From positions 414,771 through 478,770 of the forward strand of contig CAWGYV010000016.1 of assembly GCA_963826825.1 (NCBI GenBank): a DNA stretch of 64,000 bases, in the 5' to 3' direction. The notes beneath the pieces were generated by a model. That model was not told where the DNA came from and searched no databases. It was given only the letters and a program-made list of their open reading frames with translations. Source of the stretch: an uncultured Acidimicrobiia bacterium. Its GTDB lineage: Bacteria; Actinomycetota; Acidimicrobiia; Spongiisociales; DATADW01. How positions within the stretch are numbered: position 1 is the stretch's first letter; each line of letters begins with the position of its first letter. Positions 3,183 to 24,547 of the stretch are shown here, piece by piece. The position numbers and the translations under genes were made by a program.

Positions 3183-4264
3183 CTACGGCGCACCTTCGCC
3201 TCCAGCCTGCCTCGCTCTCGCCTTGCCCGCCGTCGCCACGACCAGATCGGCCTGTCGCCGCACCCGGCCCTCCAGCTCCAGTTGCGTGATCCGGGTCAGC
3301 AGGTCAGAGATCGGCCACCCCAACTCGCCCGCCATCCAATCGACCGGTCGTCCCACCGGGCCGGCCAGCCGAACCACTGGGTCGGTGTCGGCCTCGATCC
3401 CGATGGGTGGTGGAGCCCCGGTGAGCAGCGAAAGCGCCTCGACCAGGTCTGCCTCACCGAGAACGGGATGGGCTCCGTCGCGAATGAGGAGGTTGCACCC
3501 CACCGACGTGTCGCGGTCGATGTCGCCGGGCAGGGCAAGAACCTCACGACCCTGTTCGAGCCCATATCGGGCGGTTATCAATGCCCCGCCGTCGGGCCGA
3601 GCCTCGACGACCACGACGGCGACGGCCAGCCCCGAGATGATCCGGTTGCGCAAAGGAAACCGCCAAGGCTCGGGGCGGGTGCCAGGCGGATACTCGCTCA
3701 CCACGGCCCCACCGGCGGCGAGCAGGTCCTCACCGAGCGAGCGGTGACCAGCCGGGTACCAGACGTCCACACCCGAGCCGAGAACGGCGACACCCGGCGT
3801 GGGGCCGTGAAGTCCGCCGCTGTGTGCTGCGCCGTCGACCCCACGCGCCAGGCCACTGATCACCGGCCAACCGGCCTCCGACAACGCAGCGCCGAAACGC
3901 TCCGCCAGCCGCAACCCGTAGCCCGTGGGTGTGCGAGTGCCCACGACGGCCACCCCGGGCAGTTCGGGCAACCGACCCTTGACGAAGATGACGTCCGGGG
4001 CGCCGGGGAGCGACGACATCCAGGGCGGGTACTCGGGGTCTTCCTTTGTCAGCACCGAGCAACGCGCCAATGGCGAGCCGCCGGCGCCATTCGGGTGACA
4101 TTCACCGAGGCAGCCTCACGGACTGGTTGCGTCGCTTTCACCCGCCCCGCCCGGAGCGCAGCGACCACAGCGTCCGGAGACCCGAGTGATGCCACCAGTG
4201 CCGCCGACCTCTCCGGGTGCAGCCCCACACAGGCGAGCACGAGCCGGGCGTCGGAGATCACCAC
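3183..4264 (-). CDS. dprA: DNA-processing protein DprA (frame broken once near 4050-4075 in this sequence)
   Basis: The Rossmann core lies in ORF 3183..4070: VAVVGTRTPTGYG, ISGLARGVDGAAH, FPLRNRIISGL. A SAM-like N-domain (VISDARLVLACVGLHPERSAALVASLGSPDAVVAAL) lies in the frame of ORF 4049..5125, starting at GTG 4264/4261 and overlapping the comM stop. Confidence 0.85.
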
Positions 4265-5738
4265 GACTCCCGAAAGGAGAGTGCTTCGGCGATGTGCGCC
4301 TCGGTGACGGCATCGCTGGCGGACAGGTCGGCCAGAGTGCGCGCCACCCGCCGCACCCGGTCGTAACCGCGTCCGCTGAGGGCGCTCCTCTCCACTGCTC
4401 GCTCGAGCAGACCGACACCGGCCGATTCCCAGGGGAGGGCGTCGAGGCGGCGCCGATCGAGCGACCGGTTGAGCGACCCTCTGTGCGGCTTGCCGCCGAC
4501 GTGCGGCGATCACCCTGCTTCTGACATCGGCGCTGCTCTCCCCTGCCGGGCCGGAGAGCGCCGACGAGCCGGGGCGGCTGACCGCAACCCTGAGGTCGAA
4601 CCTGTCGAGCAGCGGCCCCGAGAGCCGTCTCCGGTAGCGCTCCACACCACTCGGCCGGCAGCGGCACGCCACCGCACGATCACCTTCGAACCCACAGGGG
4701 CAGGGATTGGTGGCGGCGACGAGTTGGACATTGGCCGGGAACGTGACCGACCTTCCCGAGCGGGCGACCGTCACCCAGCCCTCCTCGACCGGCTGGCGGA
4801 GGGCATCGAGCAGGTTGGTCGGGAACTCACCCAACTCGTCGAGGAACAACAACCCATGGTGGGCGAGCGAGATCTCTCCGGGGGTGACGATGCCGCTCCC
4901 CCCTCCCACCAGCGCCGCAACCGTTGCGGTGTGGTGAGGGGCGCGGAACGGCGGGTACCGGCGTGGAGCGTCGCTCCTCCCCGCGGCCGACCAAACCTGG
5001 GCCACCTCGACCGCTGCATCGGGCGTCAACTCGGGGACCAGCCCAGGCATACACCGTGCGAGGAGCGTCTTCCCCGAACCGGGAGGTCCCCACATCAGAA
5101 GGTGGTGCCCCCCCGCCGCCGCCACCTCCAGGGCCCGGCGCGCCAGTGGCCTGACCCCTCACTACCGCCAGGTCGGGTGGGTCGGGTGGCTGGTCAGACG
5201 TCGGCACCATCGGTGGGGGCCGCCGATGAAGGCGCACCCAACGCCACGGCGACCGCTTCGGCCAAGGAGGTCACCGCCCTGGTGTCGGCACCCACCACCA
5301 GCGCGCCCTCCGCCATCAGCGCCGGTGGGAGCAGACAGGGCCGGCCGAGACCGGGCGGCCACCACCGCCGCCGCCATCCCTCCCCTGGCCGGGCGGACGG
5401 TCCCGTCGAGTGCCAGCTCTCCCAGCGCAACCACGTCGGCCAACCCCGGGGGTGCCCCGCCCGATGCCGCGATCACCCCAAGCGCGATGGGCAGGTCATA
5501 TGCCGAACCCGCCTTCGGCAGATCGGCCGGGGCGAGGTTGACCGTGACCCTGCGGTCCGGCATTCGGAACCCGGACGACTGGAGAGCCGCCTGCACCCGG
5601 TCTTTCGCCTCGCGGACCGCCGTATCGGGCAGCCCTACGAGACGAAGTGATGGGAGCTGACCGCCGACGTGGACCTCCACCCGGACCGGCCGTGGTTCCA
5701 CGCCGACCAATGGTCGCTGAGGTGACTGCGGCGAACAT
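4258..5738 (-). CDS. comM: YifB/ComM-family Mg-chelatase-like AAA+ ATPase (about 5 frame breaks at ~5710, 5345, 5215, 5150, 4480)
   Basis: Pieces lie in five frames. They read MFAAVTSAT / LVGVEPRPVRVEVHVGGQLPSLRLVGLPDTAVREAKDRV / CLLPPALMAEGALVVG / PDLAVVRGQ / ALEVAAAGGHHLLMWGPPGSGKTLLA...LFLDELGEF / RGYDRVRRVARTLADLSASDAVTEAHIAEALSFRESW-stop at 4258. Confidence 0.85.
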
Positions 5739-5868
5739 GGCGGCAACGTATGACCCACCTGCGACATTCTCCGTGGCCCCGGCGTCAACCGCTCACTGCC
5801 AGCGCGACGGGTCCACGGTGAGCGGGCGAGTGCTGTCCACACCCGTGGGCAACGACTTCTTCGCTGCC

Positions 5869-6495
5869 TCACGTATCGGCTTGGGCGCCACCTGACCGAG
5901 GCGGAGTCTCCCGTGCACCCAACGCCCCCAGTTCGAGAGCTGCGAGCGCCTCGATGACCTGGGTATCGCCCCGCAGCAATGCCGAGCCAGGGGCTGAGTC
6001 GATGGCGGCGAGCTGGCGGATCGGGCGGTTGGCCAGCGCTCGGATGGCGAAGAGGGTCGTGTCGTCGCGCATGGCGTTCGCCGCCTGGGAGGCCCGGATC
6101 CAGATCAGGCGGCCCGGCAGCCACAGGATGAGAGCGAATGCAATGGGGAGTGCGGCTACGACCACCCCGACCCAACGGGCGAGACGGACCGCCGCCTCCT
6201 GTTGTGACTCGCCGGCGTCTGCGATACCGGCAACAGCGGACTGCGCAGACTCGAAGGGGGTGGCGAGGGCATCGCCGAGCAGCGGCGCATCGGCCAAGGT
6301 GTCCGCCACAGTTCCAAACGCACCCGCGACCTCCTGGGCGGCGTCTTCGAGGAGCTCACCGGGGATCGCCAGTTGAGCGACCAACTCGTAGAGATTCACG
6401 CCGACCCAGATCCACAGGATGATCCAGCCCAAGACGATCAGGTCCACGATGATCTGGCGCCGGCGCACGGTGGGGAGATCGGCATACAGTCTCAT
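5869..6495 (-). CDS. Hypothetical membrane protein (2 predicted TM helices)
   Basis: The ORF is 5869..6567. The likely start is MRLYADLPTVRRRQIIVDLIVLGWIILWIWVGV at 6495, and a second hydrophobic span reads WVGVVVAALPIAFALILWLPG. I recognise no family. Confidence 0.55.
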   Translation of the reverse strand: MRLYADLPTVRRRQIIVDLIVLGWIILWIWVGVNLYELVAQLAIPGELLEDAAQEVAGAFGTVADTLADAPLLGDALATPFESAQSAVAGIADAGESQQEAAVRLARWVGVVVAALPIAFALILWLPGRLIWIRASQAANAMRDDTTLFAIRALANRPIRQLAAIDSAPGSALLRGDTQVIEALAALELGALGARETPPRSGGAQADT

Positions 6496-6591
6496 CCGCC
6501 CATTGTGCGCCGATGTGACCGACGCCGTCGTGCTGGGTCCAATCGCCGGCGGCGGGTCCGCCGGCAAGCTCCAGCCTCGTAGACTGCTGTC

Positions 6592-7479
6592 ATGCCGGAT
6601 CGTCCCCCGTTGACGTCACGCGCCCGCGACGCGCTCAGGGAACGGCTCTCGTTCACTGCTCGGCGGAGGATCGCCATCGCTCGGGTGACGGCGCGCCGTC
6701 CCACCTCGACGTGGCGGGCGCTCCCCGGGCTCTTGGTGATCGGCACCCAGCGGGGTGGCACCAGTTCTCTCTACCGATACCTCGGGTCTCACCCGCAGGT
6801 GGTGCCCTCGCTCCGCAAGGAGGTCGAGTACTTCACGCGGCGCTACACCGAAGGCGATGGTTGGTACCGGGCGCACTTCCCGCTTGCTACAGCCGAGGGA
6901 CCATGACCTTCGAGGCCGACCCGTACTACATGTTCCACCCCCTCGCCGCCGAGAGGGCGGCGAAACTGCTCCCAGACGCCCGGCTCGTGGTGATGCTGCG
7001 CGACCCGGTCAAGCGCGCCTTCTCCCATTGGCAGCACAACCGAAGGCTCGGTGTCGAGCCGCTCGACTTCGCCGCCGCGATCGAAGCGGAGCCCGAGCGG
7101 CTTGCCGGCGAGGAAGAGCGGATCATGGCCGACCCCGGCTACGACCCGTGGAACCACAACATGCTGTCCTACTCGGGTCGGGGCCGTTACGCCATCCAGC
7201 TGAAGAAGTGGCTGGAGCACTATCCCGAAGACCATCTTCTCGTGATTCGGAGCGAGGACTTCTACGCCGACACACCCGCCACCTTCGACCGAGTGGTGAG
7301 TTTCCTCCAACTGGAGCCGTGGCGGCCGTCCGAGTTCGCCAACTGGAGCTATTCGAGTAGCGGTGGACCGGCGAAGGAGAAGATCGACCCGGAGATCGCC
7401 ACGGCGCTCGCCGAGATCCTTCGCCGCCGACAACCGGGAGTTGGAGGCGATGCTGGGGTGGGATGCCAAATGGACCTGA
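6592..7479 (+). CDS. Sulfotransferase-family protein (frame breaks ~6900 and ~7425)
   Basis: A PAPS 5'-phosphosulfate loop (LLVIGTQRGGTSSLY), then LVVMLRDPVKRAFSHWQH and RGRYAIQLKKW. The C-terminus is recovered by shifting frame: FAADNRELEAMLGWDAKWT-stop at 7477..7479. Confidence 0.8.
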
Positions 7480-7483
7480 CCGC

Positions 7484-8754
7484 TCAGACGTGATGACTCA
7501 GACCTGACCGCTCAGCTACCACGTCGAGCGCTCGCAGGTAGAACCGCTCCACCCTCGCCGCCACCTCGTCGGCGTCGTACACGCTTGCCACCTCGTGGCG
7601 GGCGGCTGCGCCAAGCCGGTTCCGCTCCGCCGGGTCGGCGAAGAGTCGCGTCACCATCGCCGCGATCGCCGCCGGATCCTCTGCGGGAACGAGCACCCCG
7701 GTCTTGCCGTCGTCCACCACATCGCTCATCGGACGCCGGTCGGTGGTCACGACGGGGAGCGCCCGGCCCATCGCCTGGAGCAGCGAGACACCCAGACCCT
7801 CGAACAGCGAGGGGAAGACGAACACGTCGGCGGCGCCCAACAAGCCGGGGCACATCGGAACGCCGATCGAGGAGCATGACCCGGTCGGCGAGACCGAGTT
7901 GTTCGATGAGGGACTCCACCATCGGGCTGGATGCCCCGGGCCGACCCGCCACCAGGAGCACGGCGCCCGGAACCTGCTCCAAGATCGCCGGCATCGCCTC
8001 GATCAGGTAGCGGTGTCCCTTCTGAGGCTCGACCCGGCCCACGGCGAGCACGACGAAGGCATCGTCGGCCAAGCCCAGCTCGGAGAGGATCGATCGCCTC
8101 GCCTCGTCGCGGGAGCCGCCGGCGTCGAGCTCGGCCAGGTCGATCCCCCGCGGGATGACATCGATCCGTTCGGGGCGCAGCCCGACGACGCTCTGCCACG
8201 ACTCGGCAACCGCCGGGGTGAGCGCCTGGAAGCGCCTCACTGTTCTCATCGTGATCCGATCGAGCAGCCGGTGACCCTCCAGCTTGAGCTTGGTCACCCC
8301 CGGGTTGTCGGTCACCCGCACCGGCTCGTGGCTTATGTTGACCAGGCTCTCCACCACCGGGATTCGACGCCGGGCTCCGACCAGCCGGGCGGCCAGCCCG
8401 GCGTTGGCCAGCGAACCGTGGATCAGGTGGGGCCGGATCTCGGCGACCGCCCGGTCGAAGGTCCGCACCAGGTCCCAGCGGCCCGACGGCCGGGCGTCGC
8501 CCTGGTAGAGGAGGTGTATCGGCACCGTTCTCGGGCACTTCGTCGCTCCGGCTCCCGACTGTGTCCTCGTAGACCACGGCCAGGGCGTGACGGAGGCGCG
8601 GGTCGGTGAACCGGCGCAGGTTGGCGACGAGCTGCTGTTCAGCGCCGCCAACCGTGCCGAGCGAGTCGATCACGTGCAGTACGAGCCGGGGACATCGGGC
8701 GGCGAGGGTAACCCGGGGGATGTCCGCCGCGAGCCCGTCGAGGTCGCTTGACAC
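7484..8754 (-). CDS. Glycosyltransferase family 4 / group 1 (frame breaks ~8530 and ~7850)
   Basis: The N-terminus reads RLVLHVIDSLGTVGGAEQQ. The middle reads VLAVGRVEPQKGHRYLIEAM...LLVAGRPG. The C-terminus reads LLGAADVFVFPSLFEGLGVSLLQAMGRALPVVTTD (the EX7E region). The three parts lie in three frames. Confidence 0.85.
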
Positions 8755-8780
8755 CGGTCCGTCCTACCATCGCTCCGCCA

Positions 8781-9576
8781 ATGCGCTGGAAGTCCGCTCG
8801 TCCACTGCTCACAGCCGGGCTTGTCCTGGCGCTGGTGGCGTGCAGCGGTGGGGGCGCGGGCCCCACCGAGTTCAACCAGGCCGACGGACCGTCCCCGGGA
8901 CTCCATCACCCGGCCAAGCAGGCCGTCGACGACGCTGCCCACCAGGCCCTCGAGGACGACGGTTCCCTCGGCGACGCCAACCACCGCGGGCGGCCCGACC
9001 CCAACGGCGCCCGTCGGTGAGCCCACCGACGTAGACGGCCTGGTCGGTTTTGTGGGGTGCTCGATGACCGAGAACGCGGTGGACGGCTACGCCGCGCTGG
9101 GCGGAGACAAGTTCTGGCCCAGGTTCGGTCGCTACGGCGGGGGCACGGTGGGACGCTGGGCGTTCGGCGCCGAGGCCGGCAGCCGTCTGTGGGCCATTTT
9201 CCGCGGCCAGTTGAGGGATCAGCCCGACACCGCCGCCATCTGGTGGCAGCTGTGCACCTTCGCCGGAGGTGCTCAGGACGACCTCGACCGGGCGCTCGCC
9301 GTGCTCGAGGAGATCAAGGCCTCGGCGCCGGGCCTCCCCATCTACGTCTCACCCCAGCCTTCCTACACCGACGGCCACGTGTGCGAGATCGCGGGCGACG
9401 GCGGGCCTGAGCGCATGGCGCAGTTGGCCGCAGACGTGGTCGCAACCGGCGAGGTCATGGCTGGTCCTCCTCAAGGCCCTCTGCCCTCCGACGTGACCCG
9501 CGACGGTTGTCATGCCGATACCGCCGGCCAGGAGATCCTCGGTGAACAGCTCGAGGCGTTCTTCGACGCAGGATGA
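8781..9576 (+). CDS. Lipoprotein with SGNH-like C-terminal domain (one frame break ~8850-8950)
   Basis: A signal peptide plus lipobox (MRWKSARPLLTAGLVLALVAC-SGG) is followed by a Pro/Thr linker. Then come a block-I-like GFVGCSMTEN and a block-V-like RDGCHADTAGQ. The domain is homologous to the C-terminal domain of the 17329..18497 protein. Confidence 0.6.
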
Positions 9577-9721
9577 CGGGCGAATCTGTGCTCAGGAGGG
9601 TGGGGACTGCCGCCGATATACTCATCTGCTGGGTTGATCGTCGGCGCGACGCGCCGTGACCCCGTCCCGGCCGGCGATCTAGTCGCCGAGTGCCACCATC
9701 GTGAGCAGGGAGACCCCAACA

Positions 9722-10728
9722 ATGGCCGATGTCCCAGTCGGCGAGATACTCGTGTCCGTCGAGGACGTCTCCAAGGTGTATATCCCCTCGCCCACCTGGC
9801 TCCGGGTACTCATCCGTTCCTCGAGCAAGGAGGCGGTGACCGCGCTCGACCGGGTCAACCTGAAGGTCGGTGCAGGCGAGATATGCGCTGTCGTCGGCCC
9901 CAATGGCGCAGGCAAGTCGACCCTCTTCCGCATCCTCACCGGTCTCACCACCCCGAGCAGGGGCCGTGCATTGGTGGGCGGGCTCGACGCCACCCGCCAG
10001 TCGTCGCGGGTACGGCGGATTGTCGGCTTCATGCCCGCCGACGACCGCTCGCTCTACCTCCGCAACACCTGCGTCGAGAACTTGAGGTTCCACGGGCGTC
10101 TCCAGGGGATGGACTCCGGCGATATCGAGCGACCGGATCGACGAGGTCCTCGAGATGGTGGATCTGAGCTACGCCCGCGACCGTGTCGGCTTCGCCCTCT
10201 CCTCGGGGATGCGAGCCCGTCTCCAGTTGGCGCGTGCCCTCCTCCACCGGCCCCGGGTCCTGATCCTCGACGAGCCGACCTCATCGGTCGATCCGGTCGC
10301 CGCCTACGGGTTGGTCCAGCTGATCAAGCGGGTGGCAGAGGAGGGCAAGGTCGCCGTTCTCATCAGCTCGCACCGGCTGGAGGAGGTCGAGGAACTCCAT
10401 GACAACGTGGCCATGCTCAACAAGGGTCGGATCATCTACTGGGGCGACCTGGACGTGATGCGATCCAAGTGGGAGGAGTCGACGGTCGAGATCGAGTTCG
10501 TCACCGAGGCCATGGCGACCGAGGCCAGCATCCGGCTCGCTGCCATGGAAGGTCTGGAGCTCATCGAGTTGGATGGCACCCAGTTGACGGTGGCCACGCG
10601 CCGCCCCCACCGGAGCGCTGCTCGCCAGGCTCGACGGCCAGGTAGATGGGATCGTTTCCCTCCGTCACACCAAGATGCCGCTGCTCCGTCTCTTCAGCAA
10701 GATCGTCGCGGACGAGGTGACGGAATGA
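9722..10728 (+). CDS. ABC transporter ATP-binding protein, DrrA/ABC-2 type (frame breaks ~10125 and ~10605)
   Basis: Walker A is GPNGAGKST, the signature is LSSGMRARLQLARAL and Walker B is VLILDEPTSSVD. ATG 9722 is preceded by AGGGAG; the ORF track starts at GTG 9701. The stop overlaps the permease start (ATGA). Confidence 0.88.
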
Positions 10729-11562
10729 GCGCTCTCGCCACCGTCGGGGTCAGCACGCGCCGCGCCGCCGGCATCTCCGGGGCCTTCTTCCGGATGGGGT
10801 GGAACTACTCCACCAACTACCCACTCGGTTTCTGGCTCGGCCAGGTCAGCCAGTTGCTCCCGGTGGTGATCTTCTACTTCATCTCCCAGCTCAACGTGAA
10901 CTCACCGGCCGTCGGAGGCGACTACTACACCTTCGTCGTGCTCGGCTTCGTGGGGATGATGATCATGGCCCCGGGAGTCAACGGGCTGAGCTTCGAGCTA
11001 GAGGCGGCGATGCTCCACGGCCACTGGGAGATGCTCCTGGTGGAGCCGGTCCCCTGGCGACTCCTGCCTTTCACCATGGTTGTCTGGCCCACCGGTCTCC
11101 GGCTTCTCCTCATCATGGTGATGGTCGTCCTCTCGACCGTGCTCGGTGCGGTCTACGACCCATCGGGGCTCGGTGTGGCGATGCTCATCCTGCGTGCTCG
11201 GTCTCGGCACCGGGCTGGCCATCGGTGTGCTCTCCGCCAGCATCAAGGTGCTGGCCAAGAAGGGCGATCCGGTGCTCACGCTCTACATGCTCGCCACGCA
11301 GGTGCTGTCCGGGCAGTTCTTCAACATCGAGGCGCTACCCACGCCGCTCCGGATCCTGGCCTATGCCATCCCCCAGACCTACGTCAACCAGGGGCTGCGC
11401 AAGGCATTGATGCCGTCGGGTGACATCATCCCCGGATTCGGGATCCCCGAGTCGCTCATCGCCCTGGCCGCGTTCAACCTGCTGCTGCTCCCGGTGGCGA
11501 TATGGCTGTTCGGACGGTCGATGGAGTACGGGCGGTCGATCGGCGTCCTCAGCGGGTACTGA
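10725..11562 (+). CDS. ABC-2 type transporter permease (frame break ~11190)
   Basis: MSALATVGVSTRRAAGISGAFFRMGWNYSTNYPLGFWLGQVSQLLPVVIFYF begins a multi-TM protein. It continues in ORF 11146..11562 (GLGTGLAIGVLSASIKVLAK...LLLLPVAIWLF). Confidence 0.8.
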
Positions 11563-11565
11563 TCC

Positions 11566-12742
11566 TCACGAACTGAGTTCTCGCTCCAGAGGCGTCCGAA
11601 ACGCGACGTCACGCGCAAGGCTCCGAGGACGCCAGCGACCCGCTCGGCCTCGCAGGCCCACCGCCTCGGCGCCCTCAGTCGGGACATCCTCCAGAAACCG
11701 GATGGCGATCTCGCCATCCTTGCGTTGCGCCCATCCCCCCACGACCCGCCCCTCCCACCAGATCGTTGGGCCGGCGTTGCCGTTCCGGTCGAACAACTGT
11801 GGGCGATGATCGCCCAGGTACCAGGACCGCTCCGACCAGCCCATGATGGTGGAGTCGAGGGCGGGGAGAAGCGCCGCCCACGGTTCGACCTCGGCCACCT
11901 GGTCGGCGTCGTCGGCGAGCACCACACCGGTTCCGGTGTCGAGTGCCACCTCGACCAGTTGCAGCCCGGCGAGGGCGGCAGTGGTCTGTCGGGCCGTCCA
12001 CCCCGTCCACCAGGTGAGGTCGCTGACCGGTGCCGGACCGAAGGCGGCGAGCCAGCGGCGGGCAAGCTCGGTCCTCGCCTCGTCCACGGCAATCTCGGGG
12101 ATGCCCCCGGGCACCCAGGTTTCGCTCGGCGCCCATCGATAGAGGGTGCTCAACCATGTCCCCTTGGGGCGACCCCTCACGATCCGGCCGTCGGCCCCGA
12201 GAAGGAACAGGACCTGGGTGGACATCCCGATCTTCCCCGCGTAGTTCTTCCCCTGGTTGACCTCGACCTGCACTCTCAACTCGGGCACATCCGAGGACAG
12301 CTCGGCCGCGGTCGCCTCACCCCGGGCGGAGAGGGCCTCGAGTGTCGCCTCTTCGACACGGGCCAGCCACGCCCCTGGGTCGTCCCCCACGCCGGCCTGG
12401 GCGACCAGTTGGACGATGCGGCGCCGTTGCTTGACCGCGATATCGGCGGTGACCGCCGACTGGATCACTCCAGCCAGATCCGCTGGGTACCACGAACACG
12501 GTGCGGCGCATCCCGAGTAGCCGCACAAGCGAGCGGTCCTCGTAGAGAGCCCTCTCCAGCGCCGAAACGTCCGGCGGGTTCATCCGGGCGGTCGCACCGA
12601 GGAGCACCGTTGCCGGGTCGGTGGCGTGGAGCCCGACGAGAGCAGCGGCGACCGCAACCGGGTCGTCGGTTCTCTTGGCGAGCAGGTGCCGTCTCGCCAG
12701 CCGGGCGCGCCGCTGCTCCACGGTGATGCGGAGGGTGGTCAC
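11566..12742 (-). CDS. Winged-helix AlkZ/YcaQ-like (HTH_42) protein, putative DNA glycosylase (frame break ~12490)
   Basis: The N-terminus is VTTLRITVEQRRARLARRHLL...LVGLHATDPATVLLGATAR. The C-terminal part carries FGPAPVSDLTWWTGW and GNAGPTIWWEGRVVGGW. The GTG start overlaps the stop of the upstream hydrolase (GTGA). Confidence 0.7.
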
Positions 12743-13593
12743 AGCCTCCGGCGCACTATCGCGGTGATCAGTTCTATCGCGGTTTGCTGCGCCTCGAGCG
12801 AGCGGAAGCTGCTCAGATCGCCCCGCTCGGTGACCGCCACCTCGATCCCGGGTCGAGAGCGCTCCAGGTAGTCCCCGAGCGGACCCTGGCGGAGTGACTC
12901 GAACGAAACGAGTTCGAGGTCGTCCGCTCCGAAGACGAGATCGACGGTGACCCCTCGATCGCGAAGCTCGCCCATATCCGCTCGGAACGACCCCGGGGTG
13001 AGGCTGATGTCGCGCGCTTTGGGGCCGGCCGGGGCGGGGCGGAGTCGCCGTGTGGCCCACCTCGCCGCCGGCCGCCACAACTCGGGGTTGGTGGCGACGT
13101 TGGCCACACCCCGCCATCCCATCTTGCGGGCCCTCCAGTCGGCCTTGGTCTGCTCGGCGGGGAAGGGGAAGGAGACAAGCACCAGCCCGGAAAGGTTCTC
13201 CAACTGCGACGCCGCCGCCAGCGCCGATCGTCCGCCGAAACAGACACCGATCACTAGAAGCCGGTCGGCGGCCCCACTCAGCGTGTCGCACACCGCCACC
13301 ACATCGCCGACAAAGGGCCGGTCGAGCACGAAACGGTCGATCTCACCGCTGCTGTCTCCGACACCATGCCAGTCGAACCTGACGACGGTGTGCCCGAGAG
13401 CGGCTATCTCCCTCGCCAGCCTCACCACGACACGGTTGCGGTTGGTCGAGGTCCCGTACCAACCGCCCGGGCAGATCACCACTCCGGTGCCGGTGGGCAT
13501 CTCGGGTCTCGTGACCACCGCCGCCAGGGCACCCTCGGGACCATCGACGAACATCGCCTGCTCGTTGGCGATGATGCCGTCACCATGCGCCAT
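12739..13593 (-). CDS. Alpha/beta-hydrolase-fold protein with a Cys at the nucleophile elbow
   Basis: Intact, 284 aa. It carries VVICPGGWYG, RFDWHGVGDSSG and the elbow LLVIGVCFGGRSAL (G-x-C-x-G rather than G-x-S-x-G). Confidence 0.7.
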   Translation of the reverse strand: MAHGDGIIANEQAMFVDGPEGALAAVVTRPEMPTGTGVVICPGGWYGTSTNRNRVVVRLAREIAALGHTVVRFDWHGVGDSSGEIDRFVLDRPFVGDVVAVCDTLSGAADRLLVIGVCFGGRSALAAASQLENLSGLVLVSFPFPAEQTKADWRARKMGWRGVANVATNPELWRPAARWATRRLRPAPAGPKARDISLTPGSFRADMGELRDRGVTVDLVFGADDLELVSFESLRQGPLGDYLERSRPGIEVAVTERGDLSSFRSLEAQQTAIELITAIVRRRL

Positions 13594-14458
13594 CCCCGAG
13601 CAGGAACCCGAGGGTGAGGGTCACCGCCTCGGTGGCGGTCACCTCGACCTCGAGACGACCACCCTTGCCCGCCGACCCGAACCACCAGGACTCGGCAGCC
13701 GCCACCGTGTCGATCCGCACATCCGCTCCGTCGCCGCGCCATTGCTCGGCGAGGTCGAGGACGGCCGGACGCGGAGTCCCCTTGCGTGACATCTCCACGA
13801 TCTGGATCCGCCTGGCCACGTTCTCGACCCCCGACAACGGTTGCGACCTCGCCTCGTCGAGCAGCGTCCTGTCGACCGGATAGCCGACAACGTCCACCGG
13901 CCCATCGTCGGCCTGGTTCTCATCCTTGACGGATTCACCCGAGGCGAGTTCGGACAGCCTCCGGGCCCGCATCACCTCTTTTTCGTACGTCGCGCCGTCC
14001 ACCACCGGGTCCCAGAGAACCAGCGTCCCTCCGGCAGGGATGGTCCGAGCCGCCACCACTGCGGCCAGCCGGGTCCCGACGAGGGCAACCGGGAGGTCGC
14101 CGAACTGGGCGAGAAGCGCCCCCATGGCGTTGGAGGCGTCGGCCGACATCGAGGTCGAGCGTGAACGGGCCGTCTCCGAACTCTGCCCACTCCCGATGGG
14201 GTGAAATCGCATCGCAGCCACCCCACCTTCGGCCAGACCGGCGGCGAGTTGGTACTCGCGCCGGTAGTTGCGGGGTCCCTCGGCAAGGGGAGGCGGGCAG
14301 ATCAGGGCGACCCCTCTGGGCTCGCCGGTGGGGCCGTGCACCGCGGCGAACAGATCGCCGGTCGCCGTCTCGATGAAGCCGACCCGAACCCAGGCCCCGT
14401 CGGGTCTCTCGATACGATCGGGTGCTACCGATTTCCAGACATGATCGGAGTTCGCCAT
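13580..14458 (-). CDS. Alpha/beta-hydrolase-fold protein lacking an obvious Ser nucleophile
   Basis: The likely start is MANSDHVWKS at 14458. It carries VALICPPPLAEG, and the elbow position reads VALVGTRLAAVVAA. It overlaps the next hydrolase by 14 nt. Confidence 0.6.
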   Translation of the reverse strand: MANSDHVWKSVAPDRIERPDGAWVRVGFIETATGDLFAAVHGPTGEPRGVALICPPPLAEGPRNYRREYQLAAGLAEGGVAAMRFHPIGSGQSSETARSRSTSMSADASNAMGALLAQFGDLPVALVGTRLAAVVAARTIPAGGTLVLWDPVVDGATYEKEVMRARRLSELASGESVKDENQADDGPVDVVGYPVDRTLLDEARSQPLSGVENVARRIQIVEMSRKGTPRPAVLDLAEQWRGDGADVRIDTVAAAESWWFGSAGKGGRLEVEVTATEAVTLTLGFLLGDGAW

Positions 14459-14498: not shown

Positions 14499-14772
14499 TC
14501 AGCCCGGCTGCCGCCGGGTCTCGACCAGCCGGGCGATGGCTCCAACGGATTCGAAGTTGGCCACGGCCAGATCCTCGTCGGCGACCTCGATGTCGAATTC
14601 CTCCTCGATGAACGCCACCATCTGCTGGATTCCCATCGAGTCGAGGATCTCGGCCTCGAACAGAGATACGTCGTCGGTCAGCTCCTCGGAGGACCCCTCC
14701 CAGCCGAGGTCCTCGACGATGAAGGCTCGGATCGCGTCGGCGGTGCTCATCGACGACGTCATGGCTGCTGCT
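14499..14772 (-). CDS. Acyl carrier protein (standalone)
   Basis: MTSSMSTADAIRAFIVEDLGWEGSSEELTDDVSLFEAEILDSMGIQQMVAFIEEEFDIEV carries the phosphopantetheine Ser motif (L-D-S-M-G). The ORF-track N-terminal extension to 15311 is rejected. Confidence 0.8.
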
Positions 14773-14987
14773 GCTCTCCCAGATGGCTGCGCGGGCATGG
14801 TACCGCCTCGCAGACCGCAGGCCTCTTGTCCATGGTGGTTGCCGGTAATGGGTAAGGTGCCTTGCCCGCTCTCAAGCTTCTGGCTCTTACCGCCGATTAT
14901 GGCAACTAGGTCACACCGAGCCTGCCGCAATCGGTTCGGGCGGTGCCTTTGAGGGGCGGTCCAAAGATCAATGAGTGGTTTTAGATC

Positions 14988-15227
14988 ATGAGCGATGTCG
15001 GTGATGAGATCCTTCGGTTCGTCCAGTCCGAATTGTCGGACGGTTCGTTTCCGGTCGGCGTTGAGACCGACCTCCTGCAAGAGGAGATAATCGACTCGCT
15101 CGGGGTGTTCACCCTGATCGGGTTTCTCGAGCAGCGGTTCGGCGTCAAGATCGATGCGTCCGAGGTGGACCTGGACAACTTCCGCAACGTGACCGCCGTC
15201 GAGCAGTTGGTGGAGCGGTCGCGATGA
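14988..15227 (+). CDS. Acyl carrier protein (standalone), divergent from the first ACP
   Basis: Intact, 79 aa. LQEEIIDSLGVFTLIGFLEQRFGVKID carries the D-S-L-G motif. Confidence 0.85.
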   Translation: MSDVGDEILRFVQSELSDGSFPVGVETDLLQEEIIDSLGVFTLIGFLEQRFGVKIDASEVDLDNFRNVTAVEQLVERSR

Positions 15228-17328: not shown

Positions 17329-18481
17329 TCAGTCGGTGTAGAAGCGGGCGATCTCCTCACCGATCGGTCCAACTGCCGCCTCGGTGAGGTGGCCCAGGTC
17401 GTCTCTGTAGTCAGCGCAGCTACGCACCTCGGGCGAGGCGCCCTTTTCGACGCCAACCGTGAGTTCGATCGCCTGGTCGATGATCGGATGGTTGACCGAG
17501 GCCCTGACACTCTCCCTGCGGTCCCCCGGACATAGCTGCTCGTCGGGACCGCCGACGATTGGCTGAAGCACGATTGCCGCGCCGGGGTACTTGACCCTGG
17601 CGGTGGCTACCGCCGACGTGATGTCCTCGACCCACTGCGCCACCGGACGCTCGGCACCCGTCACCGTAAGCAACAGCCGGCTCGGGGTCCCGTCCGAGCA
17701 CCCGATACGACCTGATTGCTCCAACCGACGAAACCCGGATCGGCCCATTTCTCGATCGTTGCTCCCGACTCCCAGAGGAGGTCCCACCCGGCGTCGCCTG
17801 CCACCGGCTCGAAGCCACCGCCGGTGAACCACTGCTCGGTCTGACTGAACCCGACCACCCTGGTGCAGGAGAAGGGGCCTGTTGCCGACAAGCCGAGCGC
17901 CCGGGCCAGGAAGCTCGCCATCTGGTCGCGCCTCACCGCCTGTTCCGGGCAGAAACGGATCCCGGACTCGTCGCACCCGGCGGTGATTGCTGCTGCGGCG
18001 ATGGAGTTGATGGCCTCCTCGTGAACGCTCTCCTCGTCGTCCACGAAGATGTCGGCGCTCGAAGCGGGGAATGCAAAGCCCCGCACCAAGAGACTTGCCA
18101 TCTGCGCCCTACTGAGCGCCTCAGACGGGCAGAAGCGCGTTCCGGCCGGGTTGCAGCCGATGGTGATGCCCGCCTGGGCAATGGCGTTGATCGCCTCCTC
18201 GTGAACGCTCTCCTCGTCGTCACCAAAAGCATCGGTCCCGGATATGGGGAGGTCAAGCGCTCGCTGCAGGAAGCTCGCCATCTGCCCCCTGGTCACCGCG
18301 CGGCCGGGGCAATAGAGGTTCGTGCTGCAGCCAACGGTGATGCCTTCGGCGGCGATCGCCTCGATGGCCGCCTCGTGGACATTGCCATCGTCGTCATCAA
18401 AGGTCCCCGCTGCTGTCGCCGGCGCGGCGGGGATCAACCAAACCGTAACCGCCAGGATGGCGGCGCCGGCCAGGCGGATCC

Positions 18482-18497
<16 letters not shown>
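17329..18497 (-). CDS. Secreted protein with 3 SLH repeats plus an SGNH-like C-terminal domain (frame break ~17705)
   Basis: A signal peptide (MRQPVRIRLAGAAILAVTVWLIPAAPATAAG) is followed by three copies of F.DD....H..AI.A.A..GIT.GC......FCP...V.R.QMASFL.RA. The C-terminal domain (VVGFSQTEQW...DDLGHLTEAA) continues in ORF 17329..17976. Confidence 0.8.
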
Positions 18498-20259
<1,762 letters not shown>

Positions 20260-20278
<19 letters not shown>

Positions 20279-20904
20279 TCGAGCGCCCGGACCAGGAATG
20301 AGGCCATCTGTCCCCTGGTCACCGGCTCATTTGGGCAAAAGCTGGTGCCGCCGCATCCCTGGGTGATCCCCGCTTCGGCCAGCGCGTTGATCTCCGCCTG
20401 GAACGTGCTGGTGCCGTCATCGGTGAAACGGTCGGGGCCGGGGGGGAGGTCCAGAGTTCGGGCGAGGAAGGCTGCCATCTGCCCGCGGGTCACCGAACTG
20501 TCGGGGCAGTAGGAGGATCCGCTGCCGCACCCGGTGGTGATCCCCACCGATGCGATCGAGTTGATCGAATCCTCGTGGGTGTTCCCCGAGTCGTCCCCGA
20601 AGTAGTCGAACTCGGCGTCGGGGGTGACGAACGATCGGGCGAGGAACGACGCCATCTGTGCCCTGGTCACCGGCTCCTCCGGGCAGAACAGTGTCCCTGC
20701 GTCGTTGCAACCCTTGGTGATCCCCCATTGGGCGAGGGCGACGATCGAGTCGGCGTGCACCGATCCTGCGATGTCGACGAACGGCTGGGGCTGCTGGGCG
20801 AGGGCCGGTGAGGGCGCCATCGTCATCGAGGTGACTGCGGACAGCGTCAGCCAGAGCACCCAACAACGCGGCCGCCTGGCTAGGCCCCTTCGGGATGTGG
20901 TCAC
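20260..20904 (-). CDS. Secreted protein consisting of 3 SLH repeats
   Basis: Intact, 214 aa, with a signal peptide ending ALAQQ. The three repeats include FVDIAGSVHADSIVALAQWGITKGCNDAGTLFCPEEPVTRAQMASFLARSF. The stop overlaps the beta-helix gene start by 19 nt. Confidence 0.85.
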
Positions 20905-21030: not shown

Positions 21031-22257
21031 TCACACCGATACCACCTCAGGGTCGAGACCCATCTCTGTGAGCTGATTCGTGATCTCCTCTTGGTAGATC
21101 TGGTTCATCAGTACCACCAGGTCGGGCTTGAGCTCGATGAGACTCTCGGGGGCGAGCACCTCGTGGCCGGTCCCGGGGAGGAACATCCCCTGCTTGTAGG
21201 GGTTGATGTCTACCACTGCCGACACGCTGTCGCCGAGGCCGATTGTGGTGAGGAAGGCGACCGCCTTGGACCCGCCACCCCAGATGGCGACACGCTCGCC
21301 GCGTTCGGCCGAACCCTCTAGCCGTTGGCGCCAGCTCTCGATGTGGCGGTTGGCGCCGGAGGCGAAGGCGAGCACCATCTCGCCGACTTCGTCGGGTGAC
21401 TCCTCGACCGGCAGCGGATCGACTGATCCGCCGATGACCGAGTCGGCCAGCAGGTACTGGTCACCGAACCCGAGTGCGATATCGGTGACGGTGAACCCCG
21501 CTTCCCTGAGGGCTCGCCCCAGCGAGCCGGGTGTGTAGTACGAGCAGTGCTCGTAGTAGATGTCCCAGAAGGCGAACTCCCTCAAGACCCGTCCCGTGTC
21601 GGGGACCTCGGTGAACATCGCTGCTCCGTCGGTTGCCTCCACGGACCGTCGCAGCAGCCTGAAGAAGTCGCCGACCGGGGCGATGTGCTCCATGGTGTGG
21701 CGGGTGATGACCAGGTCGCCGGTCAGCGGGGTGTGCTCCTCACCGTAGAAAGCGCGGATCAGCTCAACCGAGCCATCGCCCGCTTCCCCAACCGGCGGCC
21801 TCCCGAATCCTGGGTCGATCCCAATGCCCCGGCCGATGCCGAGCTCGGCCAGGAGCATCAAGAAGTCCCCCTTGCCGCTCCCCACCTCGAGCACGGTCCG
21901 CCCTTCGAGGCCGTACCTCTCGACGAGATCGCCGGCGAGTCGGCGGGCGAAGTTGGTGAACAGCGGCGAGAAGGCCTGCGACTCCTCGGTGGGCTGTCCG
22001 TAGTCCACCTTGTCGGGCTCGAAGCAGATGTTGGTGATGAACCCGCAACGGGGGCACAGCCCGAGCACAAGATCGCCGATGGGGTAGGCAGACGCCGACG
22101 GTTGGTCGGGCAGCAACACACAGCTTTGTGTCGGGATCTCCCCCGCGGCGAAGAAGGAGAGCAGCCCGGTGGCGCCGCAACTCGGGCAGGTAGCTGAGGC
22201 ACCGAGATCGAGTAGGTCGTCGCCCACCAGAGGGCGCAGGTCGGTCGGGCCGATCAC
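21031..22257 (-). CDS. Class I SAM-dependent methyltransferase with N-terminal Zn-ribbon and C-methyltransferase C-terminal domain (NDP-hexose C-methyltransferase-like)
   Basis: The GTG start overlaps the upstream stop (GTGA). It carries CPSCGATG...CPRCGF, the SAM motif VLEVGSGKGDFL and the C-terminal domain VAIWGGGSKAVAFL. In the ORF track it is fused to the next gene as one 829-aa ORF. Confidence 0.8.
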   Translation of the reverse strand: MIGPTDLRPLVGDDLLDLGASATCPSCGATGLLSFFAAGEIPTQSCVLLPDQPSASAYPIGDLVLGLCPRCGFITNICFEPDKVDYGQPTEESQAFSPLFTNFARRLAGDLVERYGLEGRTVLEVGSGKGDFLMLLAELGIGRGIGIDPGFGRPPVGEAGDGSVELIRAFYGEEHTPLTGDLVITRHTMEHIAPVGDFFRLLRRSVEATDGAAMFTEVPDTGRVLREFAFWDIYYEHCSYYTPGSLGRALREAGFTVTDIALGFGDQYLLADSVIGGSVDPLPVEESPDEVGEMVLAFASGANRHIESWRQRLEGSAERGERVAIWGGGSKAVAFLTTIGLGDSVSAVVDINPYKQGMFLPGTGHEVLAPESLIELKPDLVVLMNQIYQEEITNQLTEMGLDPEVVSV

Positions 22258-23520
22258 AGGATGGTGGGTTGCGGCACAGGGACGATGAAACGCCCGCCCC
22301 TTGCGGCGTACTCCGCTTGCTGGCGCATGATCTCGTCCCTGAAGTTCCAGGCGAGTATCAGCAGATAGTCGGGCGGGTCGTCGAGAAGCCGCTCCGGGGA
22401 AAAGATGGGCAGCCGCACTCCTGGCATATGCAGTCCGTGTTTGTGGTCGTTCCGATCCACAACGTAATTCGAGGTACTCCGCCGCCCCGGTGTAGTTGAG
22501 AAGCGTGGCGCCCTTGGCCGCGGCGCCGTAGGCAGCGATTTTTGCCCCCTCGGAGGTGAGCCTGGAGAGGAGGTCGATCAGGTCCTGGCGGACCTGTTCG
22601 ACCCGATCGGAGAAGGCGGCGTAGTACGCAGCCTCTGTGAGCCCGATCCTTCGCTCCTCCTCGAGGTACTCCTCCACCGACGGCTCGGCTTCGGCCACCG
22701 CCGAGAAGGTCACACGGAGCGACCCACCGTGGATGGGGAAGTGCCTCACCCGGATCAAATCGAGTCCGTGTCTGCCAAAGAGAGCGGCGAGCGCGGTGAC
22801 GGAGAAAATGCAGTGGTGCTCGTGATAGATGGTGTCGAACTCGCAGTTATCCACCATGTCGCGCACGTAGGGGACCTCGATCTCGACCCTCCCCTCGGGG
22901 GCGAGGATCGTCGCGATGCCGGCGACGAACCGGTTCTGGTCGGGGACATGGGCGAGGACGTTGTTGCCCAGGACCACATCCGCCCTCACTCCGTCCGCCA
23001 GCAATCGATGCGCCAACTCGGGCGTGAAGAAGTCCCTGATCGTGGGGATGCCCCTCTGCTCGGCAGCGGCTGCAGGACCGGGCGCCGGGTCGATCCCGAG
23101 GACGGGCACCCCGGCCTTGAGGAACCATTGGAGCAGGTAGCCGTCATTGCTGGCCAGCTCCACCACCAGGTTGTGGTCGCCAAGGCCGAGCTCGTCGACC
23201 AATCCTTCGGCATGGGTCCGGGAGTGCTCCAGCACCTGATCGGAGAAGGAGGAAAAGTAGGGATAGTCCTCGTCGAAAAGCACGGTGGGTGGCACTGTCT
23301 CCTTGATCTGGACGAGCGAGCACCGCGGGCAAAACACCACGGTGAGCGGATAGTGGTGCTCGTCGGCGGCGGGGAGACCCGGTGCCACCAGCTCGTCGGC
23401 CAGCGGGACCATCCCGAGATCCAGCACGGGGACCAGATCGGTCGCCCCGCAGCTGCGGCACCCGGCTATTACCTCATGCACAGGTACATCATGCACGGGC
23501 ACATCATGCACGGGCATCAC
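22254..23520 (-). CDS. Class I SAM-dependent methyltransferase with Zn-ribbon, paralog of the previous gene (frame break ~22465)
   Basis: It carries CRSCGATD...CPRCSLVQ, VVELASNDGYLL and AAYGAAAKGATLLNY. The C-terminus (VVDRNDHKHGLHMPGVRLPIFSPERL...FIVPVPQPTIL) lies in ORF 22254..22460. Confidence 0.8.
23471..23515 (-). repeat. 3 x 15-bp tandem repeat encoding (VHDVP)-type pentapeptides at the methyltransferase 5' end
   Basis: The units acctcatgcacaggt / acatcatgcacgggc / acatcatgcacgggc give the protein N-terminus MMPVHDVPVHDVPVHEV. Confidence 0.9.
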
Positions 23521-24547
23521 CCGTCGAGCTCATGAGACGGAGATCCTGGCCCAGCACGCCGGCGTCCTGGAGCGACCTCACGTGTTTGACGCGGAGGAGC
23601 TTCCCCAAGAAGGCGTCGGTCCCGATACCGTAGTTGACGAAAGCTTCGTGAAGCTGCTCGGCACCACGCCTCACCGTCCACTGCGTGGCGAAGGCGGGTA
23701 GGACTTCCTCGATCTTCGAGCAGTCGACCCGGTAGTCCCTGATGTCGGGCCCCGCGGTGTCGGAGAGGACTATTTCGCTCCCCGGCACCATCTCCTGGAC
23801 TATGTCGGCCACATCGCGGATCTGGTAGTTCTCCTCCGAGCTTCCCACGTTGAGCACCTGGTCGTGGATCCGTTCCCGCGGCGCTTCGACGGCAGCGACA
23901 AATGCCCGGGAGATGTCCTCGATGTGCACCAGCGGTCGCCAGGGACTGCCATCGCTCTTCATCAACACCCGACCCTCGGTCACCGCAAAGCCCACGAGAT
24001 TGTTGACGACCAGGTCGGCCCTGACCCGCGGCGAGTAGCCGTATGCGGTGGCGCTTCGCAGGCAGGCGGGGCTGAACGAGGTCGAGGCCAGCGCCCGGAT
24101 GTCTCCCTCTGCATTGATCTTGGAGAACCCGTATGGAGTCACCGGGTTTATCTCCGACTCCTCGGTCACGAACGCTCCCGGTGACGCGCCGTAGATGCTG
24201 CACGACGATGAGAAGACGAAGCGCTCGACACCCACGGCGGCGGCGATCTCCGCCAAGCGCGCTGCCGCATGGTGGTTGATGGCATAGGTCGTGTCGGCGT
24301 CGAGGTCTCCCACCGGGTCGTTGGAGATCCCGGCGAGATGGCAGATCGCCTCCACACCGGCGATGTCGTCCGGCTCGACGTCGCGCAGGTCCTTGCGGAC
24401 CGCGGGAATGTCGGGCCAGTCGGGGCCGAGAGTGCAGTCGGCGAACATGTAGCTGTCGAAGCCGACGACCTCGTGGCCGGCCTGCTGCAACAGTCGCACC
24501 AGCACCGTTCCGATATAGCCGTTGTGGCCGGTGACCATGACCCGCAT
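23504..24547 (-). CDS. NAD-dependent epimerase/dehydratase family (extended SDR)
   Basis: MRVMVTGHNGYIGTVL is the Rossmann GxxGxxG motif and YGFSKINAE is the YxxxK catalytic motif. The protein is 347 aa from ATG 24547; the ORF-track extension is rejected. Confidence 0.85.
   Translation of the reverse strand: MRVMVTGHNGYIGTVLVRLLQQAGHEVVGFDSYMFADCTLGPDWPDIPAVRKDLRDVEPDDIAGVEAICHLAGISNDPVGDLDADTTYAINHHAAARLAEIAAAVGVERFVFSSSCSIYGASPGAFVTEESEINPVTPYGFSKINAEGDIRALASTSFSPACLRSATAYGYSPRVRADLVVNNLVGFAVTEGRVLMKSDGSPWRPLVHIEDISRAFVAAVEAPRERIHDQVLNVGSSEENYQIRDVADIVQEMVPGSEIVLSDTAGPDIRDYRVDCSKIEEVLPAFATQWTVRRGAEQLHEAFVNYGIGTDAFLGKLLRVKHVRSLQDAGVLGQDLRLMSSTGDARA

Follow-up and report, generated by a model that had tools for sequence, protein, structure and literature searches.

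The DNA analysed here is a 64,000-nucleotide stretch (the window) of contig CAWGYV010000016.1 from an uncultured Acidimicrobiia bacterium, and the element under study is a minus-strand gene encoding a predicted AlkZ-like DNA glycosylase of the HTH_42 family (coordinates in Table 1). An earlier note on this DNA had taken the proximity of this gene to an ABC pump and to carrier-protein genes as a sign that the locus makes a genotoxic metabolite. We find it highly probable that the gene encodes a housekeeping glycosylase of the AZL2 type, which is incidentally the last gene of an envelope-glycan operon and is broken in the deposited sequence by probable assembly errors. This reading draws on the family, fold and catalytic motif of the protein, on synteny, and on the indels and selection signature of the gene. 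As far as can be judged from sequence, it is an unremarkable member of the AlkZ/YcaQ family, conserved widely and with a putative function in DNA repair, and its surroundings have the make-up of an envelope polysaccharide or glycolipid island, not of a recognisable genotoxin cluster. The reading as a genotoxin locus with its own self-resistance gene is not supported.

Family, catalytic motif and fold of the glycosylase

The repaired 391-aa product of the gene matches the Pfam family PF06224 (AlkZ-like/HTH_42) with an E-value of 7.9e-65 and 220.1 bits (cutoff 25.9) and covers positions 2-327 of the 329 in the profile, which makes it a member of this superfamily; no NCBIfam model matches it. The earlier assignment of an HTH_42-type gene to this place is borne out by this minus-strand match, as is the remark that the protein would need repair by the three 1-nucleotide (nt) indels described below. 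More than 8000 database proteins match the glycosylase at E<1e-10, and among the matches listed outside the immediate lineage the identity is ~58-62%. Scanning one genome per species, we located 80 genomic loci with orthologs 54-60% identical, in Nocardia, Amycolatopsis, Actinomadura, Micromonosporaceae, Pseudonocardia, Acidimicrobiia and Gaiellaceae, and in metagenome-assembled genomes (MAGs) of Chloroflexi and Dormibacterota. The closest relatives lie on long contigs from MFD* metagenome bins and include two intact 391-aa orthologs, P0001 at locus L001 (93% identical) and P0002 at locus L002 (82%).

A single-sequence phmmer search of the PDB matched neither AlkZ nor YcaQ, and a profile was needed: built from 21 family sequences, it matches AlkZ (5UUJ) at E 9e-12 and leaves the AlkX/YcaQ chains unmatched at E<=1. 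In the profile alignment, 'lvglhatd' falls on 'LCGVQAQV', with H39 aligned to AlkZ Q37 and T41 to AlkZ Q39. The motif H-[AGS]-[ST]-D is present in 80/80 genomic orthologs, as HATD (65), HGTD (5), HSSD (4), HSTD (3), HGSD (2) or HASD (1). HTH_42 proteins of Streptomyces have been divided into three groups, YQL with Q-phi-D, AZL with (Q/H)-phi-Q and AZL2 with H-phi-(S/T)-(D/E) (Bradley et al, 2022; PMC9040887). The segment LVGLHATDP satisfies the AZL2 consensus exactly. It departs from the AZL pattern in its third position, which is Thr or Ser in the glycosylase and in all 80 orthologs, and from the YQL pattern in having His first, Thr third and the acid displaced by one residue. The same segment had been described in the earlier note as not obviously canonical, and an absence of the catalytic residues upon alignment had been named there as grounds for abandoning its proposal; since the segment is the published AZL2 motif, kept throughout the orthologs, the catalytic residues are not absent but of the AZL2 type.

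The AZL2 group is closer in sequence to AZL and, like YQL, single-copy in 90-95% of genomes; in Streptomyces it was 'not observed within 20 kb of a BGC' (biosynthetic gene cluster) and is 'always found outside clusters', and the S. caeruleatus AZL2 enzyme (WP_062718823.1) excises N7-methylguanine (PMC9040887). Our search for later literature on AZL2 turned up only this 2022 paper. The glycosylase of the window is likewise nearer AZL, represented by AlkZ, than YQL, both in structure comparison (see below) and in the profile search, which matches AlkZ only. Its predicted catalytic residues are thus those of a described, active subclade that is not BGC-associated. All orthologs examined, from many Actinomycetota as well as from Chloroflexi and Dormibacterota MAGs, keep the AZL2 motif known from Streptomyces, which extends the known range of this little-studied clade.

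The AlphaFold2 model of the repaired protein (predicted local distance difference test score 78.9, predicted template modelling score 0.80) has three tandem winged-helix domains followed by a C-terminal beta-barrel, the fold of the family. The best Foldseek match of this model is AlkZ 5UUJ, with template modelling (TM) scores of 0.71/0.75 and E 3e-13, and the second is the AlkX/YcaQ-DNA complex 9ZD6 (TM 0.69, E 2e-9), the next match being at E 0.06. In this family, duplex DNA is bound by the concave basic surface of the winged-helix domains, and the first-domain motif adjoins the lesion nucleotide and positions a water that attacks C1' (PMC9040887, PMC13303869). By homology, the C-shaped scaffold of the window protein would clamp duplex DNA, and H-A-T-D, standing at the place of AlkZ Q-x-Q or YcaQ Q-x-D, would position the water hydrolysing the N-glycosidic bond, with His39 and Asp42, together with Thr41, taking over the roles of the Gln/Gln or Gln/Asp pair. 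The likely substrates are N7-alkylguanine adducts, possibly also interstrand crosslinks; release of the N7-alkylguanine would leave an abasic site to be handed to base excision repair. Such an enzyme would protect the genome in general and would not serve self-resistance against something that the locus itself makes.

Frame breaks and selection

In the deposited sequence the glycosylase gene is not one open reading frame (ORF). DNA alignment with L001 and L002 shows three 1-nt indels relative to the intact 1176-nt orthologs, the gene in the window being 1177 nt long. Frame 1, from the GTG at 12742, reads VTTLRITVEQRRARL...RTVFVVP and nonsense thereafter; a second frame carries ADLAGVIQSAV...TEGAEAVG and resumes later to end in RTPLERELSS*; a third carries EAERVAGVLGALRVTSRF. 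The first indel (~12484), which adjoins a CCC run and is also visible in the tblastn high-scoring pairs, moves the frame after ...RTVFVVP, the second moves it ahead of EAERVAGVLG, and the third restores it for RTPLERELSS*. Because of these indels, an ORF finder returns no more than a 320-aa piece (11566..12528), together with an N-terminal part that runs on in another frame. In the database, P0004 (300 aa) equals the frame-2 product of the window, out-of-frame C-terminus included, and this contig is evidently where that public gene call comes from. An intact 391-aa form shares its 90% cluster.

The neighbouring genes are broken in the same manner. Against L001, we counted 31 indels of a length other than a multiple of three across 18.3 kb of coding DNA, 25 of them inside positions 4258-12742 of the window, in seven genes (ComM, 8; family 4 glycosyltransferase (GT4), 6; sulfotransferase, 3; glycosylase, 3; ABC ATPase, 2; a small ORF, 2; ABC-2 permease, 1). 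The density over this interval is ~1 per 320 nt of coding DNA, and the stretch from 12.7 to 22.1 kb holds only 6. Nucleotide identity to L001 in the shifted genes, 92-97%, is that of their unshifted neighbours. The contig L003, which stems from another sample but belongs to this lineage, is fragmented throughout, at different places. The interval 4258-12742 looks like a local consensus-quality problem of the assembly.

Selection on the repaired gene was estimated by the method of Nei-Gojobori as the ratio of nonsynonymous to synonymous substitution rates (dN/dS). We obtained 0.146 against L001 (dS 0.21) and 0.169 against L002, values close to the 0.159 found between the intact L001 and L002 genes, indicating that selection has not been relaxed. 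Because frameshifts pervade the neighbouring genes and dN/dS is like that of intact orthologs, the three indels of the glycosylase gene are, from the sequence evidence, most likely assembly consensus errors and not biology. A programmed frameshift was also considered and rejected: there are three separate indels of both signs, none of them is found in the intact orthologs, and the neighbours are likewise broken. Note that single-base indels break at least seven genes in the assembly stretch at ~4.2-12.7 kb, and gene calls there are not to be taken at face value.

Gene neighbourhood and island content

The GTG start of the glycosylase (12742-12740) shares bases with the TGA of the upstream alpha/beta-hydrolase ORF, as the earlier note had read from the sequence and as the ORF ends show. 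An identical 4-nt overlap occurs in the intact relatives L001 and L002 (9156..10004 vs 10001..11176). From this GTGA overlap, co-transcription of the glycosylase with the hydrolase genes, also proposed earlier, is likely. On the other side, the stops of the ABC-2 permease and glycosylase genes converge and lie 3 nt apart (window positions 11560-11568), a spacing kept in L001 and L002; 3 nt between convergent stops leave no space for a terminator, so that overlapping transcripts would be necessary. A scan of 9-16 kb for sigma-70 promoters and intrinsic terminators returned nothing above shuffled expectation and is uninformative for a high-GC organism.

We then asked how widely this arrangement is shared. 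L001, L002 and L003 keep the order acyl carrier protein (ACP), hydrolase 2, hydrolase 1 and glycosylase, facing the ABC-2 permease and ATPase, within an otherwise syntenic 20 kb (glycosylase identity 93, 82 and 91%, respectively). In a forward survey, all 22 neighbour proteins of L001 were searched by tblastn within 10 kb of the ortholog at 79 other loci. Homologs of the ACPs, of either hydrolase, of the ABC-2 permease or of any other island gene were found within that distance at 0/79 loci, and generic ABC ATPase similarity only at 13/79. Clustering of the neighbours at the distant loci gave only lineage-specific sets of housekeeping genes, identified from their sequences as nadC/nadB/nadA in Nocardia and gap-pgk in Pseudonocardiales. 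In the reverse direction, the hydrolase-1-like protein is rare (22 database matches), and its 40-45% identical relatives lie in a string of acyl-CoA dehydrogenase, ACP, AMP-ligase, hydrolase and hydrolase (loci L084-L088), flanked by GT4 (three times), family 2 glycosyltransferase (GT2), polysaccharide pyruvyl transferase, polysaccharide deacetylase and ABC exporter genes; no AlkZ-like gene occurs in these distant ACP/AMP-ligase/hydrolase cassette loci. The two surveys together restrict the association of glycosylase and cassette to one shallow lineage. The earlier note had itself called for such a survey and had counted orthologs unlinked to these neighbours among the findings that would tell against it, and this is largely what we see, the neighbours being absent from 79/79 distant loci. 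In this lineage only, then, the glycosylase would be the last cistron of an ACP/hydrolase-2/hydrolase-1 string, and its co-expression with them is likely passive, as may be the case for ycaQ of E. coli.

The hydrolases and the facing exporter have only distant or generic counterparts among characterised systems. Scored on the 98% identical L001 protein, the upstream hydrolase reaches E 3e-16 and 59.4 bits against TIGR03100 (cutoff 168.45), and the second hydrolase reaches E 4e-22 and 79 bits against TIGR03101 (cutoff 202.75); by these similarities the two are putative distant relatives of the exosortase A system-associated hydrolases 1 and 2. The 87-aa carrier protein is 100% identical to the L001 product. 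The earlier description of a DrrA/DrrB-like exporter converging on the glycosylase gene stands as regards the convergent plus-strand ABC-2 pair (9722..11562), and does not stand as regards its kind: the ATPase scores 210.9 bits against the drrA model TIGR01188 (cutoff 312.45) and the permease 34.9 bits against the drrB model TIGR01247 (cutoff 223.05), and the pair is predicted to be a generic ABC-2 exporter.

Table 1. Positions in the window of the glycosylase gene, its motif and indels, and the adjoining genes
Feature	Position	Strand	Basis or remark
AlkZ-like (HTH_42, AZL2-type) DNA glycosylase gene, function predicted from sequence	11566..12742	-	repaired product 391 aa; three frames as deposited
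Codons H39-A40-T41-D42, catalytic-motif position	12617..12628 (12628..12617 in reading direction)	-	sequence; profile alignment
Indel 1, one extra base (CCCA vs CCT-/CCC- in relatives)	12484..12487	-	alignment column 259
Indel 2, one extra base in GGTGGGCCTGCGAGG	11651..11659	-	alignment columns 1084/1092
Indel 3, one base missing (TTC-GGA vs TTCGGGA/TTCCGGA)	11597..11598	-	alignment column 1146
GTGA start/stop overlap with upstream hydrolase gene	12739..12742	-	translational-coupling arrangement
Upstream alpha/beta hydrolase	12739..13593	-	Pfam Abhydrolase_1/6; best NCBIfam model: hydrolase 1, exosortase A system-associated
Second hydrolase-like gene	13580..14458	-	best NCBIfam model: hydrolase 2, exosortase A system-associated
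Carrier protein (PP-binding), 87 aa, first of the ACP-hydrolase-hydrolase-glycosylase string	14499..14762	-	Pfam E 3e-7
ABC transporter ATPase, generic DrrA-type subfamily	9722..10728	+	tblastn in three frames; 2 frameshifts
ABC-2 type permease	10725..11562	+	tblastn in two frames; Pfam ABC2_membrane on relatives; 1 frameshift

These genes belong to a glycan/glycolipid island of ~29 kb (window positions 5800-34600) set between conserved core genes, with tsf, rpsB, a sigma factor gene, xerC, dprA and comM on one side and trmD-rplS, ffh and ppc on the other. Open frames were listed with a relaxed gene finder in place of a stricter GC3-based one. The island encodes a GT4 whose best match is a PEP-CTERM/XrtA-system glycosyltransferase, a GT2, two sulfotransferases, fused sugar C-methyltransferase-type domains, an NAD-dependent epimerase/dehydratase, PaaK-like and FAAL-like adenylating enzymes, an enzyme of the DAHP/KDO8P-synthase family, two ACPs, and SLH-domain and beta-helix proteins. 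In the scanned parts of the window we found no ketosynthase, condensation domain, polyketide synthase (PKS), nonribosomal peptide synthetase (NRPS) or other core biosynthetic enzyme, and the longest open frame in the window, of 832 aa, falls short of megasynthase size.

Several further features of the island were recorded. Its two carrier-protein genes (87 aa on the minus strand and 79 aa on the plus strand; window positions 14499-15227) are divergent, ~225 nt apart, and each leads its own string; the string on the plus strand continues with a 213-aa protein of no family, a 133-aa protein with a lipoyl/biotinyl-like N-terminus and a 345-aa protein with a weak SGNH/GDSL match. The 832-aa frame (21034-23529) joins two methyltransferase units (Methyltransf_13/14/23), for which L001 and L002 have separate ~350-aa genes, and this fusion is probably a frameshift or lost-stop artefact. 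A 598-aa beta-helix protein (18482..20278, minus strand) ends in ~24 uninterrupted glycines, poly-proline on the opposite strand, and here (18482-18700) it extends into the beginning of the next SLH-domain gene; the glycine tract could vary in length or give rise to assembly errors. SLH-domain proteins are encoded at 17329-18497 and 20260-20859, and a polysaccharide pyruvyl-transferase is present in the related cassette locus L084, a hint of an SLH/pyruvylated cell-wall-polymer anchoring system in this lineage.

Alternative readings and comparison with known systems

A different account of the broken frames is that the glycosylase gene is a genuine pseudogene, decaying in this strain through real frameshifts, as the ABC, GT4, sulfotransferase and comM genes would be too. 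We regard it as unlikely. Three frame-breaking indels within a single gene, the concentration of indels in one 8.5-kb stretch where an even distribution might have been seen, and the truncation of the public gene call (P0004) would all be explained by it. Yet the dN/dS of the repaired gene is indistinguishable from that of the intact pair, the shifted genes have diverged no more in nucleotide sequence than the unshifted ones, and there are no large deletions and no premature stops beyond those that the shifts create. The contig from the other sample, similarly fragmented but elsewhere, and the intact 391-aa form in the 90% cluster also point to consensus errors.

Turning to the function of the gene, the self-resistance hypothesis of the earlier note would have the ACP, hydrolases and AMP-ligases make a metabolite that alkylates or crosslinks DNA, which the ABC-2 pair would export and whose adducts the AlkZ-like enzyme would excise from the DNA of the producer. 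AlkZ, HedH4, TxnU and LldU are indeed BGC-embedded resistance glycosylases of the same superfamily, the island holds two AMP-ligases (PaaK-like and FAAL-like) besides its two ACPs, and the glycosylase gene shares 4 nt with the upstream hydrolase gene and adjoins the exporter, an arrangement retained in three relatives. We nevertheless judge the hypothesis extremely improbable. The motif is that of AZL2 (H-A-T-D), which in Streptomyces is never less than 20 kb from a BGC, and differs from the (Q/H)-phi-Q associated with BGCs; orthologs of the protein are conserved at ~55-60% identity across classes and phyla, whereas AZL resistance enzymes evolve fast. Embedding in or near the BGC of an alkylating agent, which marks the AZL group, is not seen here either: the surroundings are of glycan/envelope type, the neighbours are shared in 0/79 ortholog loci, and polysaccharide loci elsewhere have the cassette but lack the glycosylase. 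The scanned parts of the window revealed no PKS, NRPS or warhead-forming enzyme, and the ABC pair scores under the DrrA/DrrB cutoffs. Furthermore, ycaQ of E. coli, a housekeeping member of the superfamily, shares an operon with the ABC exporter gene msbA and with lpxK (PMC7367128), so that an envelope/exporter operon is not diagnostic of self-resistance; by this analogy, a superfamily member in such an operon without a link to a toxin is already known. The gene could also be a recruited partner, deliberately co-expressed with envelope-glycan acylation and export, either to counter lesions from reactive acyl/aldehyde intermediates or envelope stress, or to act on a non-DNA glycosidic substrate, and to this we likewise give hardly any credence. 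The retention of the 4-nt overlap and of the 3-nt convergent spacing at 82% protein identity, the independent placement of ycaQ in the msbA-lpxK operon and the competence genes comM and dprA 6-9 kb off would all fit, but the association recurs neither in the 79 other lineages nor in the other copies of the cassette, and the degree of conservation is no more than common descent by itself would lead one to expect. A broader version, in which an AZL2 glycosylase was captured as the coupled last gene of a carrier-dependent polysaccharide operon, beside an ABC-2 exporter, and, with the ycaQ parallel, reflects a recurrent functional tie between HTH_42 proteins and envelope synthesis or export, appears very unlikely to us; if true, the glycosylases could protect DNA from damage that reactive intermediates inflict while the envelope is made.

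Some observations weigh against a housekeeping AZL2 glycosylase that is in this operon by incident and broken by assembly errors. The conservation of the GTGA overlap and of the convergent spacing down to 82% ortholog identity is one, and leaves room for some functional coupling of the glycosylase to the operon. The indels are mostly insertions and lie in homopolymers only in part, and the proposed placement in AZL2 is based on the motif and on similarity to AlkZ over AlkX/YcaQ.

Overall, the housekeeping reading calls for caution in resistance-guided genome mining: the presence of an AlkZ-family gene beside a carrier-protein gene and an ABC pump does not by itself indicate a genotoxin cluster. 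Before a genotoxin is invoked, the subclade should be checked by its motif ((Q/H)-x-Q, Q-x-D or H-x-(S/T)-(D/E)), together with the conservation of the neighbourhood.

Among known systems, the exosortase A (PEP-CTERM) cassette offers a parallel to the neighbouring genes. It shares with them the best NCBIfam models of the two hydrolases, their pairing with a carrier protein and the XrtA-type best match of the GT4, and distant relatives with the order ACP, AMP ligase, hydrolase 2, hydrolase 1 lie in polysaccharide loci; it differs in that the window genes score far under the cutoffs, the host is actinobacterial and has SLH proteins, no exosortase was seen, and the AMP-ligases of the window are 17-20 kb away. 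The resistance glycosylases AlkZ of Streptomyces sahachiroi (5UUJ), HedH4, TxnU2/4 and LldU1/5 have the same Pfam family and fold as the glycosylase, and carry their motif likewise in the first winged-helix domain. The window protein is only ~20% identical to AlkZ/AZL, has H-A-T-D where they have Q-phi-Q and does not lie in a genotoxin BGC; the AZL resistance set is fast-evolving and multi-copy, whereas the orthologous group of the window protein evolves slowly and is widely distributed. With E. coli YcaQ/AlkX (YQL; T. fusca AlkX-DNA, 9ZD6), it would share a housekeeping role on N7-alkylguanine lesions or crosslinks, a similar fold (TM 0.69) and, in the case of ycaQ, an operon with envelope and ABC-exporter genes, but YQL proteins have Q-x-D where the window protein has H-x-T-D, and the family profile finds no match to AlkX. 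The closest counterpart is AZL2 of S. caeruleatus (WP_062718823.1). The window gene differs from it in coming from an uncultured actinobacterial lineage other than Streptomyces and in standing last, with a start that overlaps the preceding gene, in an ACP/hydrolase string of a glycan island; the two have in common the motif type, a single-domain protein of ~390 aa that is well conserved and closer to AlkZ than to YcaQ, and probably, to judge from the scanned parts of the window, a location outside any recognisable secondary-metabolite cluster.

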